From sequence record NC_047740.1: a stretch of 43,017 nucleotides of DNA. One strand, 5' to 3'. The stretch's first letter is position 1, and each line of letters opens with the position of its first letter. The translations under genes were made by a program, and so were the position numbers. This DNA comes from Enterobacteria phage phiJLA23. Under the pieces are notes generated by a model, which did not search any database, was not told the origin of the DNA, and saw only the letters and a list, made by a program, of their open reading frames with translations. Below, one piece after another: positions 1,593 to 43,017 of this stretch.

Positions 1593-4500
1593 TTACCATA
1601 CTCCAACCACTACCCTACCTCCATTTGGTAAATTAACAGTTATGCCGTTATTGTTTATTACGACAGTATTGTTGGTTCCGTTAAACGCGAAGTTACCATT
1701 GTTAGCGTACAAACTACCGCGAACGGTAGCGTTACTTAACTCAGCAAAACCAGATTTATCAATTGCCCAACCAGCACTACCAGCAACATAGTTGTTTGAT
1801 TGAATCCTGTTACCAATCTTCGCGTTAGTAATTGAACCATCCTGAATCACCGCGCTCTGAATGAACACCTGGTTATTCTCCACAACGAAAGGTAGCGACC
1901 ACTGACCGGAACCAGAACTAATGCCGTTACTGATTGCGAACCTGTTAGCATCAAAAATAAACTGACTACGAACATTTCCACCACTACCAGTTAACTCCAT
2001 GCTCATTCCAGCGCCGTACTCAACCCCATTGTACTTCAGGCCGAGCTTAACGCCGTACTGAACACCAACACCTTCGACCGTGGCATAAGAGTCAAGCTTC
2101 TGATTCAAAGCCGCCTCGTTATCACCAAGCCTTGAGCTTAATTGAGTATCAGCTGTAGCCCTGGCTTCGGTCTCCGTAGCAAGTGCGGTTTCAATTGTCG
2201 TAATCTGACCAACAATCTCATCATCAATCTGCGCTTTAAGCTGCGTGAGAGCGTCCACACGGGCCTGAGTTTCATCAGCAATCAAACTTACTGCCTGGCG
2301 ATATTCCGCCTTCCTGTTAAGATTCTCCTTTGTCATAACGCGTACGTCAGTATCATTTGCCAGGGCGTTCTCGATTATAGCTTCGGCCTGATTCTGGATG
2401 TCAGTATTTGCATCAATGGCGTTCTGGAGAAGATACTTGTAACCATCAGAGTTTTCGATATCAACCTTGATGTCACCAATGATCGCACTTACATCATCGG
2501 ATGCCATACCTCTGACAAAATCAGTCCACGGAGATACGTTACCTATCCTGTCAATAATCCTGGCCCTGTACCACCTCACGTTACCTGCTGGTAGAGTGGT
2601 GTGCCAATATTCGTATTGAGGATACGGAACCAGCGTAAGCAGTGACGCGTTCTCCGGTGTATATGTTCCGTCACCATTATCAGGAACCTGCTGAAGCTCG
2701 GTGTAAGCGGTATCAGCTGAGTCAGTAGGGAAGCCCCACTTAACCCTAATCCCGAAAACCTCATCATCAGAAGCCGTAATTACAGGCGGCTCCGAAGGTT
2801 CCCCAATCTTGCCAGTCAGGCTAACTGTCGTGATATCTGACCATGCCGACACTGATTTCTGGTCAGTTACGGCGCGAACCCTGACGTCGTAGATGCCAGC
2901 GTAAATGCCTTCAATATCAACCTCGGTATTAGCTGTCTCAGGTACGTTAATCCAGTTGCCGTTATTCTTGCGCCACTGTACGTTGTATGTTTTCGCATAC
3001 TGCACCTTGTCGTAACCAATAACCATCGTCTCAACGCTTAAGCCCTGAACTACCTTGCTGTAACTAGTAACGGTGATATTTTCAGGTGGTAAAATCCTGT
3101 CAGGGTCAACGATACTTGTTGGCCTGTCGTCAATATTCACACCATAGTCAATCTCGTCATACTTGTTCGGGTCATACTGCACCGCAGTGATGCTGTACTG
3201 GAATGAATCCTCGCCGTCCGTGTTTGCTTTTTGAATTCCTGTCACAACGTATTGCTGCAACGCCAGATTCTGCTTGTCGATTGCAAATACCGTATCCGGC
3301 TGAGGTGTGAAGCTGAATGCTGTATTCAGTTCAAGCGTCAACTTATCGGCAGATACTGAAGCGATAGTCCTGTACTCTGGGCTCCCATCTGGCTTGTTGA
3401 TTAAAATCCTGTCGCCAGGGTCAGCATCAATAGCGAATGGCACGAACACCTGCAAACCTGTAGCTTCAACAATTCGACCCGAAAGGTTTAATGTGTAGTT
3501 GCTTGACCAAGCCTGGTCATTAACGGCAATTACATCACCAATCATAGGAATCATGCCTTCGAGGCCAGTTGTGAACGTTACCGTTTCACTGCGAAGGTTT
3601 GTTTTCAGCAACCAACGCCCGCGACGGTTAGCCTCGCTTCGCCTTACGCAGCCAATTGCAGTCAAGTCTACAGGGTTGTAACCAAATCGGCGTGTTGCTT
3701 CTAAGTCGAATACTGGCTCGACATCCTGCTGGTAGTTGTTCTGCTCGTCATCAAACTGAACGTTGGCTGTCGTGTAAAGGCTCTTGTCGCTAGAGAATGT
3801 CCTGTTAAACAATCCATCAACAACGTTATCATTAGTGAACACATAGCTTGGCTGGCGCGGCCTGTCTACAACAATCCCGATTTGCTCACCATCATAGAAG
3901 GTTAAACCGCGGAAGATAGAACAGATGTCACGAATAAGCTGATACGCTTCCACTTTCTGCTGAATGACAACGTTACAAGTATATCGCGGCTCCATTCCAC
4001 CCTTACCATCAGGAACCATCTGGTCGCAGAATTGCGCTGCTTCATACAGACCCCACTTATCAATCTCTACACCAAGCTCTCGCTGATCCAATCCGTAGCG
4101 CTGACTAACCACCAGATCATATAAAACCCAGGCCGGGTTGTCAGACCATGCCATTTTAAAAGTTCCATTCCATGTGCCGCTATAAGCCCTTGTCTCTGGA
4201 TTGTAGTTTGTCGGTACGCGGATAAGTTTCCACTTTTTCTTAATGGCTATAGTTGGGATCCCGTTAGGGAACAGGTCAGAACTGAACTCCACGTAAACAA
4301 GTGCCGTAAGAGGGTAGCGGAATTTAGCATCGATTACTTCCTGATAGGTTGTGATCTGCATCCCGTTAACCAGGGTGCTATTTGTTGAGTCTGGCGTTAA
4401 CTTCCTAATACGAACAAGAGCGCTGCTAAACTCGGCTGGTAAGTTAACCCTGATACTGCGGTCGTAACCTGTTGTAGTTTTACCGTTAGCCACGCCTCTG

Positions 4501-7127: not shown

Positions 7128-7150
7128 AATATTTCTCCAGTAANTCTGTT

Positions 7151-7165
7151 TAGCAATTAGTGCTA
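7151..7165 (-). promoter_or_regulatory. Isolated copy of palindrome TAGCA-N5-TGCTA at the M/L junction
   Basis: ttagcaattagtgctattt; overlaps M-like stop codon and lies about 23 nt before L start; no -10/leader module. Possible operator. Confidence 0.4.
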
Positions 7166-7166
7166 T

Positions 7167-7517
7167 TTACTGCATAGATGTGAAAACTTCTACAAACTGC
7201 ATTGATACAGTCTGCACGTCCTTGGTGTTTGGTGTGACGCTGATACTGTCCTGAGCTACAACAAACAGCTTAAGCTCACCCTGCGGAGTTGTCCATGCGA
7301 ACGGGGTGATGATGTGAGCAAAGCAGAAGTCCAACACTTCCTTCCAGCTGGTGTTGGTGTAGGTCATGTTGTAGGTGCGCTTATTGGTCCTGTAACCTCC
7401 GGTTCCGCGCTGCTCGTAGCCATTGCCAAAGCTAACAACCCTAACGTTATTCGCGTTAGTAAAGTTTGCTGATCCACCTTGAATTTGGGTACACCATGTA
7501 AAAGTATCTAATGCCAT
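7167..7517 (-). CDS. Minor tail protein (lambda M-like)
   Basis: 116 aa directly after tape measure gene; RBS aagga 6 nt before ATG. Confidence 0.6.
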   Translation of the reverse strand: MALDTFTWCTQIQGGSANFTNANNVRVVSFGNGYEQRGTGGYRTNKRTYNMTYTNTSWKEVLDFCFAHIITPFAWTTPQGELKLFVVAQDSISVTPNTKDVQTVSMQFVEVFTSMQ

Positions 7518-13883: not shown

Positions 13884-13968
13884 TTGTTTCGATTGTTTGA
13901 TTATATCTCAATAGCTACCAAAATAGCACCCCGANGGGTGCTTCTTCCTTGTCAAAAAGTGCTATTAA
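13884..13968 (-). promoter_or_regulatory. Terminator (13917-13945) plus TATAAT -10 and conserved leader; degenerate palindrome over capsid stop
   Basis: Hairpin gcaccc-loop-gggtgc then T-run on minus strand after capsid stop; TATAAT; leader as in other composite promoters. Confidence 0.5.
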
Positions 13969-15003: not shown

Positions 15004-15823
15004 TTATGCATCAAGCCTTACAACTTCTATACACAGGTCTTGATTGTCGCTCACAACATAACCGACTGTAAATAGATTTATTGTTACTCTCCACGCCGTT
15101 CCTGTTGTGGTTTCATAAAAGCTAAAAACATATGGCCTTATTCTTTGAAATTCACCAATGCCAGTAACCAATGCTGTTCCAGTTACGGAAGATGAAGATA
15201 TTGCTGTCCTTACTGTTGTATTGAAGTAGTTATCTGTATTATTGAAGCCCTCAATATTACCTCTTATGTTCCTGGCAGTGCTTCCCTCATCAATCCAGGC
15301 TCTAATGCTAAAAGCANTTGGNGAATCAAGCCTTATACCACCGAGNNCNCNCCNNTCNTCGCCTTGAGGACCTNGCGGCCCCGCAGGGCCTGCCGGACCA
15401 GTGTCGACCTTGNGGCCNTGCNGCACCAGCTNCGCCTGCGGGACCTGCTGGACCNTGCGGACCAACCGGACCTTGTGGACCTGCTTCACCTGAACCCCCT
15501 CCTTCATCACTTGCAAAATCACCTTTAGCCAGAGCTGAAATATAAGCGCCATCCTCGAAGTGAGCATTGCCAAACCTTTTCCAGCCCTGCGCTAGATATC
15601 GGTTAACCCTGTTAACTAGCCCCTGAATTGTGGTGTCGGATGTAACCATGAAGTCTTCAACGTTGTTTGTTGTTCCTTTCGCCATCTTCATGCCAAAGAG
15701 GGTGCCGCTTAGCATCTGCACATCACCATATGGCTGAAAGCCTGATGACATCATCACTTTTACGTTCCTGGCTAAGATTTCAGGTGAATTCCCTACTGCC
15801 ATAGCAATTTCTGTGTAAGCCAT
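15004..15823 (-). CDS. Structural protein with collagen-like Gly-X-Y repeats (ORF disrupted by N-run 15300-15500)
   Basis: RBS aggaga 5 nt before ATG 15823; translation contains GEAGPQGPVGPxGPAGPAG; two overlapping ORFs (15326-15823, 15004-15573) rejoin if the N-rich tract is corrected. Confidence 0.5.
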
Positions 15824-19494: not shown

Positions 19495-19700
19495 TAATTT
19501 CTCCAATAAAAACGCCCCTGGTAAGGGGCAGTTTATCATGATTACTTAACTCCAGCTAGCCTCATTAACCTAGNTCTTGGGTCGNNCNNNNNNNNNANNC
19601 CGTCTGNNTNNNCTTTNNANNTTTTNTANTCNATAAAAAAGCCCCTGAGTAAGGGGCAGTTTATCATGATTACTTAACTCCAGCTAGCCTCATTAACCTA
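19495..19700. repeat. Tandem duplicated segment (~19507-19575 and ~19631-19700) around an N-run: probable assembly artifact containing the terminase terminator
   Basis: Two near-identical copies of the large terminase 3' end plus terminator hairpin, separated by Ns 19575-19635. Confidence 0.7.
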
Positions 19701-23466: not shown

Positions 23467-23700
23467 ACTGAAATAAATATCACGNTNCTCACCACGCTNC
23501 TTTCGAAGTTCATAAGCCTTATTAAGCGACTCAATAGCTTCATCAAGGTCTGTTAANANGTCCTTGTGCCCACGCANNCCNCNNANGCGNGNNAACNCAN
23601 CNCGCTCAACAATAAGTACCATACCCTCATCAGCAAGGCATTCGGTGTCGAATCCGTGATTTTCGTGAAAGTAAACTGCCTCATCAACTTCAATTATGCN
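23467..23700 (-). CDS. Probable gene obscured by N-run (hypothetical protein)
   Basis: Long open frame on minus strand through 23485-23700; stop codon lies inside the palindrome copy; start unresolved. Confidence 0.25.
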
Positions 23701-24369: not shown

Positions 24370-24432
24370 TTGTTGTTGATAGGGTAATCATAGCTGACTA
24401 CCCAATTTATTGTTTAGCAATTTGTGCTATAT
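24370..24432 (-). promoter_or_regulatory. Composite early promoter (palindrome 24415-24429, TATGATTAC, leader TATCAACAACAAA)
   Basis: Palindrome also encodes the last residues and stop of the upstream gene. Confidence 0.45.
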
Positions 24433-24974
24433 TCACCATTCGGGAGAGCTTTCGCTTTCCGGTAGAACTGTATGGCCTTCTCCACCTCATCGGCATTATA
24501 GCCATGGATTGTTGTTTGCGGTGGCACGTAGTTTGAGCGTGGCACGTCGGATCGGCACTGACTGCACCAGTTTTGCACGTCGTCCTTATCCATCTCAACC
24601 AGGGCCGGATGAACATAAATCTTATCGCCAATGAGGCAAACAATTCCCGCCTCTTGTAGTTCTGGGATGATGTTATTTGTCAGGTCATGCATAATCCCTT
24701 CGCGCCCGACGAATGGCTGGACATTTCGTATTGCCTCGTATAGAGATCGAATGCCAACCACTCCATTCCAGCCATGGCGGCTAATCCTGCTAACTACGAC
24801 ACCGTATTTGTAGCTCAACTTGACGCACAGCATCTCTTCGGCGCTGGGCCAGAAATTGAATGATTGGCGGTATCCATTAGTACTGATTGCCACACGAAGT
24901 GGCGGCAGGTTATCTTGCCTGGCGACTTCCATCACCTGGTCATCAGTTAACTTATCCTCGTTGAAATCAAACAT
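24414..24974 (-). CDS. Hypothetical protein; truncated paralog of the P-loop ATPase 26758-28341 (shares its N- and C-terminal segments, lacks the ATPase core)
   Basis: N-terminus MFDFNEDKLTDDQVMEVARQDNLPPLRVAISTNGYRQS and segment VVGIRSLYEA...CLIGDKIYVHP align with both ends of the 527-aa protein; strong RBS aaggag. Confidence 0.6.
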   Translation of the reverse strand: MFDFNEDKLTDDQVMEVARQDNLPPLRVAISTNGYRQSFNFWPSAEEMLCVKLSYKYGVVVSRISRHGWNGVVGIRSLYEAIRNVQPFVGREGIMHDLTNNIIPELQEAGIVCLIGDKIYVHPALVEMDKDDVQNWCSQCRSDVPRSNYVPPQTTIHGYNADEVEKAIQFYRKAKALPNGEYSTNC

Positions 24975-25237
24975 TATTTAGTCTCCTTAATCATTTCCTG
25001 ATATGCGTTAATCATAGCTACCGCACCCTTCAGTTCATCTCCACTCATTCCTGCTACGCTGGGGAAAGCTTAAGTAGCCTAGCTTTAAACTCGCTTACCG
25101 CTTTCTCCCTTATTGGACTGTTTGTCTTAGCTCGNGGTTNCNTNNNNACNACGCNGAANTNCATNCAGAAGANNATTTTCTGTGCTGCGATGGACTTGGC
25201 TGCGTCGAATGTTTACCATTTATTTGAGGATTGAGAT

Positions 25238-25477
25238 ATGAAAATTCGCTGCACCAATTGCATTACAAGTACCGACAAGAAAATACTAACACCATTCGTA
25301 AAAGGCTCTTTATACGACGCTGAGCGTCTAATCATTAACGGCAAGGCAATCCCGAACGAATGGGTTATTAATGGCGCTGAGCGACCACACAAGCACGATT
25401 CTGGATGGATTGCCATTACAGGCTGGAAGGTTGGAGTGTTTATTCCTGGTATTGCAACTTTTGATGAGGTTAAGTAA
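25238..25477 (+). CDS. Hypothetical protein (79 aa)
   Basis: RBS gagga 7 nt before ATG; first plus-strand gene after divergent intergenic region 24975-25237. Confidence 0.55.
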   Translation: MKIRCTNCITSTDKKILTPFVKGSLYDAERLIINGKAIPNEWVINGAERPHKHDSGWIAITGWKVGVFIPGIATFDEVK

Positions 25478-26253: not shown

Positions 26254-26255
26254 TT

Positions 26256-26312
26256 AATAGCACTTTTTGCTAATGACACTACCCGCTTCGGCGGGTATAT
26301 TTGTTTCCATCA
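26256..26312 (+). promoter_or_regulatory. Composite early promoter (palindrome 26258-26272, hairpin acccgcttcggcgggt, TATATT, leader CCATCAAGAAGACAAAC)
   Basis: Same module; starts 2 nt after upstream stop. Confidence 0.45.
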
Positions 26313-26338: not shown

Positions 26339-26455
26339 ATGAAAAACATCTCTAAAGCAGTTGATGCGGTAATGGAACAAGTAATTAAGTTTGGTTTCTT
26401 TGGCTTCATGGGCGCAATCGCTGTTGTAGTTGGCAAATGTCTGGTTGGTCTTTAA
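26339..26455 (+). CDS. Small hydrophobic membrane peptide (38 aa)
   Basis: RBS aaggtg before ATG 26339; C-terminal FGFFGFMGAIAVVVGKCLVGL. Confidence 0.4.
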   Translation: MKNISKAVDAVMEQVIKFGFFGFMGAIAVVVGKCLVGL

Positions 26456-26517
26456 TGGCACTTTTTGCTAAAGACCTTAACAACAAAAATTGATATATTC
26501 TCTTCATCGAAACGAAA
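26454..26517 (+). promoter_or_regulatory. Composite early promoter (variant palindrome TGGCA-N5-TGCTA 26456-26470, TATATT 26494-26499, leader CATCGAAACGAAA 26505-26517)
   Basis: Same module, left arm one mismatch. Confidence 0.45.
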
Positions 26518-26717: not shown

Positions 26718-26757
26718 ATAATCAAGCCCCTTCGGGGGCATTTAGAGAGAGATGATA

Positions 26758-28341
26758 ATGTTTGATTTTAATGATGACAAATTGACTGTTGAACAAGTAA
26801 TGGCTGTTGCCGCTCAGGATGGATTACCTCCTTTACGTGTTGCTATTAATGCGAACGGTTATCGCCAGAGCGCATCATTCTGGAAAGCTCCGGTTGAGAT
26901 TGATTCTACTGGCGACAAGTATCCTGTTATCTCGCTTGGTAACGACTATGATGTAGTTGGCAAACTATCAAGCAACATTGCTCGTTCTGTTCAGTTTCCT
27001 GAATCATCTGCTTATATGCACTTCCTTGGTTGCATCTCGGCAGCTATGTTAGGTCGCTTTACGGTTGAGTATCACGGAACTCAACAACCAACATCACTGT
27101 ATGTAGTGACCAGCCAGCCTCCATCAACTGGTAAATCCGCCATTAACTCGCTGTCTCTGGCTCCAATGATTGCAGAGACTGAGCGACTAAACGATCTGCG
27201 TAAGCGTGACCGTAAAAAGATTATGGCCAAGCTGTCGGCTCTGGCTAAAGAAATGAAGCAGGAGAAGTCGCCTTCTGAGATGGCTGGTTTGTTTGAGGAG
27301 AAGGAGGAGCTGGAAGATAAGCTCGAGAAACTTTGCGACATCGTATTCCCTGTATCTGATACTACTCCTGAAGGTCTGGCACGCATTAACCATCGTCAGG
27401 GTAGCTTCGCTGTCATCTCGGATGAGGCGACGAGCGTCAACTCACTGCTTGGCATGACCTATGGTGATGGAACAAAGAAAACAAACAGCGAACTGGTACT
27501 TAAGGCCTGGGATGCTGGTAACGTATCTATCGCGCGTGCGAACGCAGAGAACAACATGAGCTTTATTGCTATGGGGTGTATTTCTGTAATTGCGCAGGAT
27601 GAAACAATAGTCGCAATCATGAATGCTGGTGCTCGCGGTATTGGTGTATCCGAACGTTTCTTGCTTGTGCGTGAAAAGTCATTCCTTGGTGAGCGTGTTT
27701 TCGTCGATGATAATGGCGAGTCAACATATGAGCCGATTGACGGAGCGTTGAAGGCTGATTACTTCCGTCTTGTTCATGAAATTATGAGTGAGCAAGATGT
27801 GAAGTTGACTATTAGTAACTCAGCAATGAAGCACCTTAACCGTGCTCGACAGGAAATGGAGCCACACCTTGCGGATGGCGGCAAGTATTCACACACAATG
27901 CTCCGTGGCGCACTAGGTAAAATGGATAAGCAGGTTATTCGCCTTGCTGCCGTTCTTCACACCATACGTAACTGGTTTAATCCAAATGGCGGTAGTCCGC
28001 AGAAGTCCAGGGAGATTGGACTGGAAACGATGCAGGAGGCTTTATTGATGTTTGAAGAACTTAGCAAGACTTACTTATCTTCTGCTAACGCAGCTGGTCA
28101 TGCTGGCGATAACGCTGAGATGAACAAGTTAATTGATATCCTTATCAAGCAAGGCAAGAACAGTAAAGGAGTTGTGGGTTTGCGCTCACTTTATGAAGCT
28201 GCGCGTAAGGTTCGACCTTTCGAGTCACAGGCTGGTGTTATGGCTAAAATTAAAGACCACTTACTCCCGATGCTTGATGATAAAAACTATACCTGCCTGA
28301 TTGGTGACAAGGTATATATCAATCCACGGCTGCTGGGGTAA
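26758..28341 (+). CDS. Replication-associated P-loop ATPase (putative initiator or helicase-loader type)
   Basis: Walker A SQPPSTGKSA and Walker B-like FAVISDEATS; N- and C-termini homologous to the 186-aa protein at 24414-24974; start at second ATG (MFDFNDDK) by paralog alignment. Confidence 0.65.
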   Translation: MFDFNDDKLTVEQVMAVAAQDGLPPLRVAINANGYRQSASFWKAPVEIDSTGDKYPVISLGNDYDVVGKLSSNIARSVQFPESSAYMHFLGCISAAMLGRFTVEYHGTQQPTSLYVVTSQPPSTGKSAINSLSLAPMIAETERLNDLRKRDRKKIMAKLSALAKEMKQEKSPSEMAGLFEEKEELEDKLEKLCDIVFPVSDTTPEGLARINHRQGSFAVISDEATSVNSLLGMTYGDGTKKTNSELVLKAWDAGNVSIARANAENNMSFIAMGCISVIAQDETIVAIMNAGARGIGVSERFLLVREKSFLGERVFVDDNGESTYEPIDGALKADYFRLVHEIMSEQDVKLTISNSAMKHLNRARQEMEPHLADGGKYSHTMLRGALGKMDKQVIRLAAVLHTIRNWFNPNGGSPQKSREIGLETMQEALLMFEELSKTYLSSANAAGHAGDNAEMNKLIDILIKQGKNSKGVVGLRSLYEAARKVRPFESQAGVMAKIKDHLLPMLDDKNYTCLIGDKVYINPRLLG

Positions 28342-28345
28342 TTAA

Positions 28346-28681
28346 ATGTTCATCCTTGATGTGTTCAAGTTCTGCGAGAGCTACGAAAAGTTTAACAGGC
28401 AGCACCTGGCGGTATTCATTTACCGCCACAAAGAATGTGAAAGAATGGCTAAGGCAGCTGGAGTTAATGCGCGTTACTTTGCATCATCTGCGTCAAAGGA
28501 GTTTCTGGCAAGATGCATGACTGAAGGTTACATCGATGGAGTTAATGGCAGTTACTGGAGCAAAGGAAGCACGAAGCGACCATTCGGTTTTAGCTTTAGG
28601 TGCCTCGGAGGTGAGAGTGATAAGTACACCAATGAGATGATGACCATAAAAGAAATGACAGACGACCAACTGTTCGCGTAA
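28346..28681 (+). CDS. Hypothetical protein (111 aa)
   Basis: ORF 5 nt after ATPase stop; ends at bidirectional terminator. Confidence 0.5.
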   Translation: MFILDVFKFCESYEKFNRQHLAVFIYRHKECERMAKAAGVNARYFASSASKEFLARCMTEGYIDGVNGSYWSKGSTKRPFGFSFRCLGGESDKYTNEMMTIKEMTDDQLFA

Positions 28682-30451: not shown

Positions 30452-30520
30452 TTTGTATCCTCTCGTTTTGTTTTGATGGAGTAAATATACCCCCTCTTTT
30501 NATTTGTNTTTTANTTNGTG
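30452..30520 (-). promoter_or_regulatory. Composite early promoter (TATATTTAC, leader CATCAAAACAAAAC; palindrome degraded by Ns)
   Basis: Module order conserved; upstream half-site region contains Ns. Confidence 0.35.
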
Positions 30521-30843
30521 CTAGTTCNTGTNTNCNTTNTNNNTNNNNTTTCTAGCGTATTCATCATCTCCTCAAGCTTCTCTGCATCAATAGAGGACTT
30601 AACCCATTGCAACTTCACATTGCCATCATTATCAACAAGGCTAGATACACCTTTAACCATGTAGCCCTGAGGAATTAGGTTACTCACATCGCGACCGTGA
30701 CCATCCCCAGCCTTAGCCAACTTGCTGCGACGCAGCTCTACGTTACGAATATTCATACCGTACTTCTCTGCGATTGCCTTGTTAGTCATACCGTTAGCCA
30801 GTTCTTGCTTTAACTCTTCGTTGGTGATTTTAGCTATAGACAT
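30511..30843 (-). CDS. Putative HTH DNA-binding protein (3' end uncertain, runs into N-run)
   Basis: N-terminal helix-turn-helix-like segment TNKAIAEKYGMNIRNVELRRSKL; ORF passes through Ns 30490-30550. Confidence 0.45.
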   Translation of the reverse strand: MSIAKITNEELKQELANGMTNKAIAEKYGMNIRNVELRRSKLAKAGDGHGRDVSNLIPQGYMVKGVSSLVDNDGNVKLQWVKSSIDAEKLEEMMNTLEXXXXXXTXTSXX

Positions 30844-30931: not shown

Positions 30932-31000
30932 TCGTCTCTCGTTTCGATGAACACACTATACGCCATCCATGGCGATGTGTTTTAACAAAAAGTGCTATTT
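30932..31000 (-). promoter_or_regulatory. Composite early promoter (variant palindrome TAACA-N5-TGCTA 30983-30997, hairpin cgccatccatggcg, TATAGTGTG, leader CATCGAAACGAGAGACG)
   Basis: Same module; about 100-nt leader before the HTH gene. Confidence 0.45.
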
Positions 31001-31252
31001 AACTTCTTTTAGCCAGTAATCAAGAAACTCAGTTTCAAGCGCAGCAATTGCTGGAGAATACTCACTAGGCATCATCATATTGCAGCCAGGTGAGTAGTAC
31101 ATCAACTCAGCCTTACCAATCTCAATTTGCACCAGTACATCGAGGTAGTCCGGAGGAATCCACTCAGAGAAAGGAATCTTCCGATAAGGCTTCTCACCAA
31201 AAAACACAACCTGATACTTACTCTCATCAAAATCCAGACCAGGTAAATTCAT
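30995..31252 (-). CDS. Hypothetical protein (85 aa)
   Basis: ORF; stop TAG inside the palindrome copy. Confidence 0.5.
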   Translation of the reverse strand: MNLPGLDFDESKYQVVFFGEKPYRKIPFSEWIPPDYLDVLVQIEIGKAELMYYSPGCNMMMPSEYSPAIAALETEFLDYWLKEVK

Positions 31253-31611: not shown

Positions 31612-31686
31612 TCTTAACCCTCTCATTTGCTGATGTAATTAATATAATCCATCCTTGTATTTTAGTTTTAACAAAAAGTGCTATTT
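31612..31686 (-). promoter_or_regulatory. Composite early promoter (variant palindrome 31669-31683, TATATTAATTAC, leader CATCAGCAAATGAGAG)
   Basis: Same module; palindrome overlaps upstream stop. Confidence 0.4.
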
Positions 31687-32297
31687 ACTCATAAACAAGA
31701 AAACTTACATGCTTACCTTTCGCATCATTACACCCGTAGTACCCATCAAATTCATTATGTAACTTCCATGCAAATCCGTCATCGCTAACTATTTCAACCT
31801 GGTCATTAATCGGGTCAAGTTTGAATTCATACTCATTGAGCAGGGTGAATGAGCCGTTCGTCATTACGCAAGTCGCAGTAATCATGAAAAAATCCTCCGG
31901 GCAATCTTTCTTCATTTCTTCGATATCAGCAATCATTCGGTCNNNCCATGTTTCGATATCAGTGTTCAGATAACCCNCTTCTNAACTATTTAAACCNGTT
32001 CATTAATCGGGTCAAGTTTGAATTCATACTCATTGAGCAGGGTGAATGAGCCGTTCGTCATTACGCAAGTCGCAGTAATCATGAAAAATCCTCCGGGCAA
32101 TCTTTCTTCATTTCTTCGATATCAGCAATCATTCGGTCGCGCCATGTTTCGATATCAGTGTTCAGATAATCCTCTTCGAAACTATAATCAAGACACCAAG
32201 CTAAATCCCAAACATCATTTTTATATCCAGCTTTACTCAACTCCTGCGCCACCATTGCCTGAAAGAGTTCCCATTGCTTATCAAAGGTTAATTTCAT
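31685..32297 (-). CDS. Hypothetical acidic protein (about 155 aa in the true genome; interrupted by an artifactual ~198-bp tandem duplication)
   Basis: ORFs 32079-32297 and 31685-31936 share ...RMIADIEEMKKDCPEDF; copies differ by homopolymer length and Ns at the junction. Confidence 0.45.
31786..32181. repeat. Tandem ~198-bp duplication with N-rich junction (probable assembly artifact)
   Basis: Unit 31786-31983 repeats at 31984-32181; Ns at 31943-31997; A6 versus A5 run between copies. Confidence 0.7.
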
Positions 32298-34896: not shown

Positions 34897-34966
34897 TTAA
34901 TGTTCGTTCGATTGACGATATAATAACAGCCATATAAACCAATGTTTAACAAAAAGTGCTATTGAG
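34897..34966 (-). promoter_or_regulatory. Composite early promoter for helicase operon (variant palindrome TAACA-N5-TGCTA 34947-34961, leader CAATCGAACGAAC); in divergent region abutting HTH gene RBS
   Basis: Palindrome ends 6 nt before the RBS gaggtgag of the plus-strand HTH gene while at about -42 of the helicase promoter. Confidence 0.5.
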
Positions 34967-42185: not shown

Positions 42186-42304
42186 TGTATATAGCTGTAA
42201 AACTCACATAAATACGCTTTGATGCTCTGTACGCCGCATGAATGCTGAATGTAACCCTTGTAACCAATGTATCCACCAAATTTGCACCCTATCTATATAT
42301 ATAT

Positions 42305-42720
42305 GCATTTTCTCCTTAACAGGAAATCAAACATAGTATTTTAGTAAAACACAACAACATAGCTATAGAGAGTAGTTACAAGATATACATAGTAATATAT
42401 ATAATAATAATAATACTCTAAACCCTTATTATATAAGGATTTATAAATGTAACTAATGCGTATCTTCGCGTAAAAAGCGTATACAATTTTCAGCGGATGA
42501 GATTGTATACATCGAGTTACATCGGTTACGCGTATATAAAATAGCNNGTTTTNTAAAAAACANNACAGNAGNCTTTTCCTTTANTACCNCCATCAAAACA
42601 AAANATACTGACTAAGGAATAAAAAATGAANAACTTCATAAAATCAGCAATCATCGCAGCAGCAGAACTNATGACGGTAGNTTGTTTCTGGTGNNCNCCC
42701 CCTTGACGGNTGGTGGGGGC
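42305..42720. repeat. Contig wrap-around overlap, copy 2 (low-quality duplicate of ~42-470)
   Basis: Matches window start including lipoprotein 5' end; many Ns. Confidence 0.8.
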
Positions 42721-43017
42721 TNGTGGGGGGNGGTGNTGNGGTGNTTGNNTGGCGAAGGTGGTNAGGTAGGGTNATGGTGTGNGCTGTNGAGTTTGTTTAN
42801 TTCGTNTTGNGNNNGNTGNTTNNNAGNGTNGGTATGNGNTGGGACGGGTCGNGNNGCANNGTNNNGNGTNGANGNNNNGGNNGNNNGANNNNNNNNGNCN
42901 NNGNNNNNNANNGNNNANANNNTTNNNNNNNNANNNGNNNNCNNNGTANNGTATTTAGAATAGGAACGGAACGGCAGACAAGTAGGAAATTACAGTCGTG
43001 GTCGTTAGAGTTACCGG

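Follow-up and report, generated by a model that had tools for sequence, protein, structure and literature searches.

A motor-less paralogue of the MCM-like replicative helicase in T1-like phages

The protein of 186 residues encoded on the minus strand at positions 24414 to 24974 of the phage genome analysed here (the window, a single stretch of 43,017 nucleotides) is, judged from its sequence, a true paralogue of the 527-residue DUF3987 helicase of the same phage, in which both ends of the enzyme have been kept and the ATPase core has been lost. The short paralogue is a real gene with a strong ribosome-binding site, and it is under purifying selection. Because the entire AAA+ core, including the Walker A and Walker B motifs, is lacking, the product can be neither an ATPase nor a helicase, and it belongs with the DUF3987 family only as a paralogue. 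The favored explanation, to which a probability of roughly 0.4 can be attached, is that the protein serves as an accessory, motor-less paralogue that would compete for the ligand of the helicase terminal modules, modulating helicase recruitment or diverting a factor that targets the helicase.

T1-like phages are common laboratory contaminants as well as phage therapy candidates, and the MCM-like (DUF3987) helicase on which their replication relies has been little studied. A natural copy consisting of only the ends of this enzyme marks which of its parts make up an independent interaction unit, and the short protein is a ready probe for what the helicase ends bind. The family has been catalogued before as phrog_7327, but the PHROGs entry carries no function and does not record the helicase paralogy. 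Full-text literature searches found no paper describing the relationship, nor is it mentioned in the AHP24/AHP42 (AHP24/Rogue1) genome paper.

THE PARENT HELICASE

The parent gene occupies positions 26758 to 28341 on the plus strand. Pfam DUF3987 (PF13148) spans residues 81–433 of its product (E 2.5e-42), and the gene can be divided into an N-terminal module (26758–26901), the DUF3987 core (26998–28056), and a winged-helix (WH) domain (28117–28338), all on the plus strand. A Walker A motif (QPPSTGKS, residues 120–127) and a Walker B motif (VISDE, at about residues 219–223) can be read directly in the sequence. There is an alternative ATG at 26752, but a start at 26758 better fits the weak GAGAG ribosome-binding site and agrees with the MFDF start of all homologues. 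DUF3987 proteins have been classed as SF6 (MCM-like) replicative helicases with a C-terminal wHTH domain (Kazlauskas et al. 2016; PMC4889955), and the findings for this helicase agree with that classification. The annotated gene set of Escherichia phage C119, which is about 99% identical to the window, lists primase, SSB, and helicases. Since it includes no DNA polymerase, a C119-like phage presumably uses the polymerase of its host, and the helicase would then have to interface with host factors.

Two further observations concern the surroundings of the helicase gene. A GC-rich hairpin, GCCCCTTCGGGGGC, lies at 26728–26741 (plus strand), about 10 nucleotides upstream of the helicase ribosome-binding site and without a T-run after it, and could act in processing or attenuation of the transcript of the helicase gene. 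Directly after the helicase, at 28346–28681 (plus strand), is a gene for a 111-residue protein (phrog_2794, labelled ‘YdbL’ in JK06) that is conserved in all loci for which sequence beyond the helicase was recovered, with invariant Cys, His, and Arg positions.

A SHORT PROTEIN THAT MATCHES BOTH ENDS OF THE HELICASE

The open reading frame of the short paralogue (24414–24974, minus strand; 186 codons plus stop) contains no ambiguous bases and corresponds to C119 gp59 and to JK06 JK_46. Its product is 100% identical to C119 gp59, which is annotated as a “hypothetical protein,” and it matches the phrog_7327 profile over its full length (residues 1–181 on profile positions 1–179 of 179, E 1.3e-98).

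An initial annotation had proposed that this protein resembles the 527-residue ATPase at its N-terminal and C-proximal ends and lacks the region between them, and both parts of that proposal hold. Using BLASTP with composition-based statistics, residues 1–48 of the short protein align with residues 1–48 of the helicase (33/48 identical, or 69%; E 5e-20), and residues 71–126 align with helicase residues 471–526 (27/56 identical, or 48%; E 2e-17). Neither segment is low-complexity, and both matches stay significant after correction for composition; beyond these two terminal segments, BLASTP of the pair finds nothing significant. Profile–profile comparison with hhalign pairs residues 56–127 with helicase residues 454–527 at a probability of 99.3%, and PHROG cross-hits, hhalign, and an exhaustive profile search together widen the C-proximal match to residues ~38/56–127 against helicase residues ~436/454–527. 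The short protein can therefore be described as the helicase minus residues ~45–445, plus a C-terminal tail of 59 residues that is foreign to the helicase. No Pfam family matches it at E ≤ 1, the DUF3987 core included, and the 186-residue sequence contains no GK[ST] motif, Walker A motif, or Walker B motif. Residues conserved in both families comprise A18, A29, I30, and W42 in the N-terminal module and an RKVxPFxG loop, P104, L106, and P123 in the winged helix. The paralogy is real and more than chance, and the structural interpretation of the protein is right.

MODULES AND PREDICTED FOLD

The N-terminal helical module that is common to both proteins (residues 1–48 of each; 24831–24974, minus strand) carries the motif LPPLRVAINANGYRxSxxFW, and its predicted helices (residues 11–20, 25–33, and 36–41) have pLDDT values above 90. 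The winged-helix domain (residues 55–127; 24594–24812, minus strand) is homologous to helicase residues ~454–527. In a monomer prediction, as all of the structure predictions were, the model has an overall pLDDT of 82 and exceeds 90 across residues 4–140, the linker between the modules included. It consists of three short helices (11–41), a connecting segment, a canonical winged helix (55–127), a disordered stretch, and a terminal helix. The winged helix resembles the WH domains of ORC and Cdc6 and has the H1-S1-H2-H3-S2-wing-S3 topology. The N-terminal module and the winged helix are predicted to pack as one compact unit, and an independent BFVD model of the homologue from phage DTL superposes at 1.4 Å over 134 columns, so this modeled arrangement is reproducible.

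Sequence searches found no solved-structure match for the short family, the helicase, or the DUF7174 protein encoded next to the short paralogue. One GenBank record for a homologue (phage UDF157lw) is labelled ‘HEPN domain-containing protein,’ an identity that can be set aside because no Pfam or NCBIfam profile matches the protein and the fold is that of a winged helix rather than HEPN. The consensus of WH helix 3 in the short family (IMxDLxNNILPSLQDAG) includes no basic residues and is unlike helix 3 of the helicase, and so the ligand of the short protein may have diverged from that of the helicase. The protein as a whole is acidic (pI 5.4), and its winged helix has a net charge of +1.

The C-terminal extension (residues 128–186; 24417–24593, minus strand) is absent from the helicase in the alignment and consists of a variable linker followed by a conserved amphipathic helix (HGYDADEVEKAIxFYRKAK). 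In the model, pLDDT is low at residues 142–155 and a helix is placed at residues 161–175. Distant short forms bear analogous tails. The first residues of the 111-residue protein encoded after the helicase (MFxLDVxxFC) are loosely like the start of this tail, and tblastn read-through matches drew attention to the same M-x3-DV-x2-[WF]-C resemblance between the tail and the gene downstream of the helicase. An origin of the tail from the start of that gene was nevertheless rejected, as the profile–profile probability is only 2.4% and falls on another region.

DISTRIBUTION AND GENE CONTEXT

The initial annotation had recommended a search of related phages for the short form, and it proves to be present in some of them. 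The helicase ends give tblastn matches in 506 phage records, almost all of them from Drexlerviridae, and a full-length short form is present in at least 102 of the 506, from Rogunavirinae, Braunvirinae (including BASEL phage Bas03 JulesPiccard), and Nouzillyvirus. T1 has no short form. Among 1.84 billion cluster representatives, searched exhaustively with HMMER, there were only 48 matches, which comprise about ten short-form clusters (164–185 residues), helicases, and fragments; no other architecture with the N-terminal module or the winged helix was found among these representatives. A BFVD fold search likewise retrieved only proteins of T1-like phages. The short family is thus a narrow one.

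In every short-form locus, the gene for a DUF7174 protein (gp58 in C119) lies directly upstream, with a TAATG overlap of its stop codon and the start codon of the short gene, and this pair has been kept across Rogunavirinae, Braunvirinae, and Nouzillyvirus. The two genes head an operon that runs toward the terminase and is divergent from the helicase operon, and the intergenic region between the two operons measures about 700 bp with 36–38% GC. The counterpart of this position in T1 is the physical left end of the genome, within the 2.8-kb terminal repeat. There, ST77 is a weak relative of DUF7174 and is followed by an unrelated gene, and in an IMG/VR genome (locus L023) a 67-residue ORF occupies the place after DUF7174. 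For these reasons, the position after DUF7174 is a variable accessory slot. The DUF7174 proteins of JK06 and C119 are 38% identical and their short proteins 94%; the two genes therefore recombine independently, which argues against a tight, specific complex of both products. As a separate observation, the last ~35 residues of the DUF7174 protein (LKLSPSVAG..AMINAYQEMIKETK) are near-identical in C119 (gp58, positions 3478–3990 of locus L001) and L023, and the rest of the protein drops to 30–45% identity across phages, a pattern that suggests a mosaic boundary or else an element conserved for coupling.

This arrangement bears on how the short gene is read. The initial annotation had given it a promoter and a strong ribosome-binding site of its own. 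The latter is present, as a Shine–Dalgarno sequence (AAGGAG) at 24983–24988 on the minus strand, 8 nucleotides before the ATG, and it is strong compared with the weak GAGAG-type site of the helicase. The promoter was not borne out. A consensus promoter scan of the minus strand from 24975 to 25240 found no sigma-70-like site, relatives carry the gene as a second cistron, and in a close relative a single promoter is annotated, about 370 bp upstream of the DUF7174 gene.

A different element is repeated across the genome. A 20-nucleotide motif, AATAGCACTTTTTGYTAA, of the form T[TA]AATAGCACTTTTTG[CT]TAA, occurs in 7 copies in the window, where none is expected, and in 9 copies in C119. The window copies are at 26254–26273 and 26452–26471 on the plus strand and at 7150–7169, 13949–13968, 30982–31001, 31668–31687, and 34946–34965 on the minus strand. 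They share the strand of nearby genes, and those inspected are intergenic. A TATAGT/TATATT-like hexamer stands about 22–23 nucleotides after most copies, with a CATCGAAACGA-like block next in several. The helicase is preceded by two copies, and C119 has one in its divergent region. The motif looks like a phage-specific promoter or operator. A search for iterons or tandem repeats near the short gene, near the helicase, and in the C119 intergenic region yielded nothing convincing.

ASSEMBLY STATE OF THE WINDOW

Comparison with C119 also clarifies which features of the window are particular to its assembly. The window is a complete genome of 43 kb from a T1-like siphophage (Drexlerviridae, Rogunavirus). 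Its assembly is circular and the ends overlap, such that the first ~750 nucleotides (1–750) are repeated at 42271–43017. Ten C119 segments are missing, three HNH endonuclease genes (C119 gp05, gp27, and gp41) among them, and the deletion junctions are marked by clusters of N (15317–15455, 19574–19632, 23485–23602, 25135–25174, 30501–30548, and 31943–31997). At the N-riddled junction of 25135–25174, 1,324 bp of C119 are missing, namely the 5′ two-thirds of the DUF7174 gene, the whole AT-rich divergent intergenic region of about 670 bp, gp57, and part of gp56. What is left of the DUF7174 gene (24974–25164, minus strand) amounts to its last ~60 codons with a frame break. In all relatives this gene stands before the short one, and its stop codon overlaps the ATG of the short gene. 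By analogy with T1, the genome ends fall in this region, and an assembly artefact would therefore be as probable as a true deletion. As the upstream promoter region is missing, expression of the short paralogue in the window genome is uncertain. The spacing of 1.8 kb between the short gene and the helicase, to which the initial annotation had drawn attention, is likewise specific to this assembly; the distance is 3.4 kb in C119, mainly by virtue of the 1,324 bp.

AGE, SELECTION, AND DISPENSABILITY

The DNA of the two genes has diverged far more than their common residues would suggest. Within single genomes, the short gene and the helicase gene have pS values of 0.68–1.05 in the N-terminal module (nucleotide identity 59–69%) and of 0.67–0.86 in the winged helix (nucleotide identity 54–67%), and the protein identities are about 60–77% and 48–73%, respectively. 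Since synonymous sites are saturated, the duplication is judged from these sequences to be ancient, with the similarity held at the protein level and no recent gene conversion. A recent duplication or conversion event is ruled out by this saturation together with a nucleotide identity of 54–69%, and the copies are too diverged in DNA to act as an inverted repeat for recombination. An internal-deletion duplicate, as had been suggested at the outset, remains the best description of the gene, with the amendment that the event is old. In the Sf12/AKS96 lineage, the short winged helix is 71–73% identical to that of the helicase although synonymous sites are saturated, and among these comparisons this is the strongest hint of a ligand that both proteins have to fit. 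Co-variation of the N-termini of the two proteins within genomes gave the same value on the diagonal (64%) as off it (64%), with helicase N-termini that are nearly invariant.

Comparisons between diverged phages show the short gene to be under purifying selection, with a dN/dS of 0.13–0.2 overall and 0.04–0.15 in the N-terminal module; the tail has values of 0.2–0.7 and exceeds 1 only between near-identical pairs. The helicase is held far more tightly (dN/dS 0.01–0.05, with protein identities of 87–100% compared to 39 to 100% among short forms). In a side comparison of C119 with e4/1c, dS in the short gene is 0.08 in the N-terminal module and 0.94 in the WH segment (the 24594–24812 region), a difference that implies replacement of the WH part by recombination and a mosaic short gene.

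The gene is disrupted in four of the 14 lineages examined, its frame being otherwise intact and conserved. Phage DTL (L010) has a TAG at codon 141, phages isolated on E. coli DSM 12242 (L015) have a TGA at codon 140, CEB_EC3a (L014) has a stop at codon 37, and locus L019 has both a stop and a frameshift. The four disruptions look recent and independent, and may have been driven by the host. Because of these nonsense and frameshift mutations and the patchy distribution of the gene, an essential role in replication is excluded; the short gene is dispensable and is not a core replication regulator.

POSSIBLE FUNCTIONS

The proposed history begins with an old duplicate of the helicase gene that would have lost codons ~45–445, and with them the AAA+ motor, in frame. 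The remainder is the N-terminal helical module joined to the C-terminal winged helix, to which a new tail with an amphipathic helix at its end has been added. Both kept pieces are predicted to form a compact body, and in the full-length helicase they probably make up a terminal ‘cap’ as well. Helicase-like residues have been kept long after synonymous sites were randomised, and so the ligand of the short protein is most likely that of the cap, whether a partner protein or DNA. By occupying or titrating the ligand, the motor-less copy could modulate helicase recruitment or shield the helicase from a factor that targets the cap. It would be produced by translational coupling to DUF7174, from the second cistron of an operon by the left end of the genome.

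A more specific version of this proposal is possible, albeit doubtful. The free cap copy might act in trans as a decoy or throttle, either by titrating something that brings in the helicase or attacks it (a replication protein or a host immune sensor, for instance) or by limiting helicase loading. If so, no motor-less regulator or decoy encoded by a paralogue would have been described before it for an SF6-type viral helicase, and it would add a paralogue-based means by which a viral replicative helicase is controlled or protected. On this view, the recurrent nonsense mutations would mark escape from the effect of the protein on particular hosts. If the protein instead has no measurable effect, the locus would still show clearly how domains can be excised from an essential gene. 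Phages with homologues include tractable ones such as Bas03 JulesPiccard, with E. coli K-12 as host.

Three rival explanations share their structure with competition for a cap ligand and differ in what that ligand is. The first holds that the protein is a stand-alone DNA-binding regulator, whose freed winged helix binds specific sites and controls transcription, packaging, or initiation independently of helicase partners. Candidate sites would be the AT-rich divergent, pac-proximal region or the repeated promoter-like motif of 20 nucleotides. The fold itself is suggestive, as is the placement of the short gene second from an AT-rich regulatory region of about 700 bp, and the 7–9 copies of the motif per genome would supply targets. 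Furthermore, the C-terminal winged helix of SaPI Rep helicases binds origin iterons (PMC9371898). An acidic protein with a WH charge of only +1 and no basic residues in helix 3 is poorly suited to this task, however, and the repeat searches revealed no iteron array close to the short gene or the helicase. DNA recognition by the winged helix also leaves the helicase-like conservation of the N-terminal module unexplained, and this explanation is considered unlikely.

The added amphipathic helix raises the prospect of an adaptor or loader, in which the cap copy would dock on helicase subunits or on a partner and the C-terminal helix would recruit a third component, such as primase, a host polymerase, clamp or SSB, or DUF7174, to aid assembly at the origin. 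Conservation of that helix, translational coupling to DUF7174, and the interface between helicase and host factors inferred from a C119 gene set without a DNA polymerase would all accord with such a role. It is hard to reconcile with two facts: about 80% of the Drexlerviridae records with this helicase, T1 included, have no short gene, and nonsense mutations have removed the tail in DTL and in the phages of the DSM 12242 group, which are still viable. The chance that the protein is an adaptor is accordingly rated as small.

The disruptions can also be viewed from the side of the host. A free cap could mimic a helicase surface that is seen by a host immune sensor or inhibitor, and so serve as an anti-defence decoy or, conversely, as a trigger of defence. 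In favor of this are the location of the gene, in the variable slot that follows DUF7174 among the small accessory genes of the left end, and a level of constraint far below that of the helicase. The single nonsense mutations, independent of one another and in ORFs that are intact apart from them, also resemble escape mutations. PADLOC, however, gives no match for the short protein (nor for DUF7174 or the helicase), and full-text searches of the literature turned up no helicase-sensing system for these phages. This evidence is purely circumstantial, and the idea is a special case of competition for the cap ligand rather than a distinct structure; on its own, it is regarded as rather improbable. 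Finally, a functionless, decaying remnant of the duplicated helicase gene, which the disruptions in 4 of 14 lineages and the patchy distribution might suggest, is very improbable given an ORF that is intact across synonymously saturated lineages at a dN/dS of 0.13–0.2, a confidently predicted compact fold, and a conserved Shine–Dalgarno sequence, synteny, and tail motif.

COMPARISON WITH KNOWN SYSTEMS

The nearest relatives of the short protein are the DUF3987 (PF13148), or SF6 MCM-like, helicases of the same phage lineage, with which it has a homologous N-terminal module and C-terminal winged helix. It differs from them in having no AAA+ core, in its extra tail of 59 residues, and in a dN/dS that is about 3- to 20-fold higher. 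Compared with the winged helices of MCM, ORC, Cdc6, and SaPI Rep, the domain is found here in a free protein, fused to a small N-terminal module, and its helix 3 is not basic.

Truncated competitors that lack an effector domain are known from other systems, as exemplified by the papillomavirus E8^E2 and E2-TR repressors and by the Tn5 inhibitor protein. These are made from the same gene as the full-length form, by way of internal starts or splicing. Like them, the short protein has kept targeting or interaction modules and has lost the catalytic or activating one. Unlike them, it is encoded by a separate, anciently diverged gene on the opposite strand, and its inhibitory action is putative. 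The retention of helicase-like residues despite saturated synonymous sites fits a protein that would act as a competitive or dominant-negative truncated paralogue of this kind.
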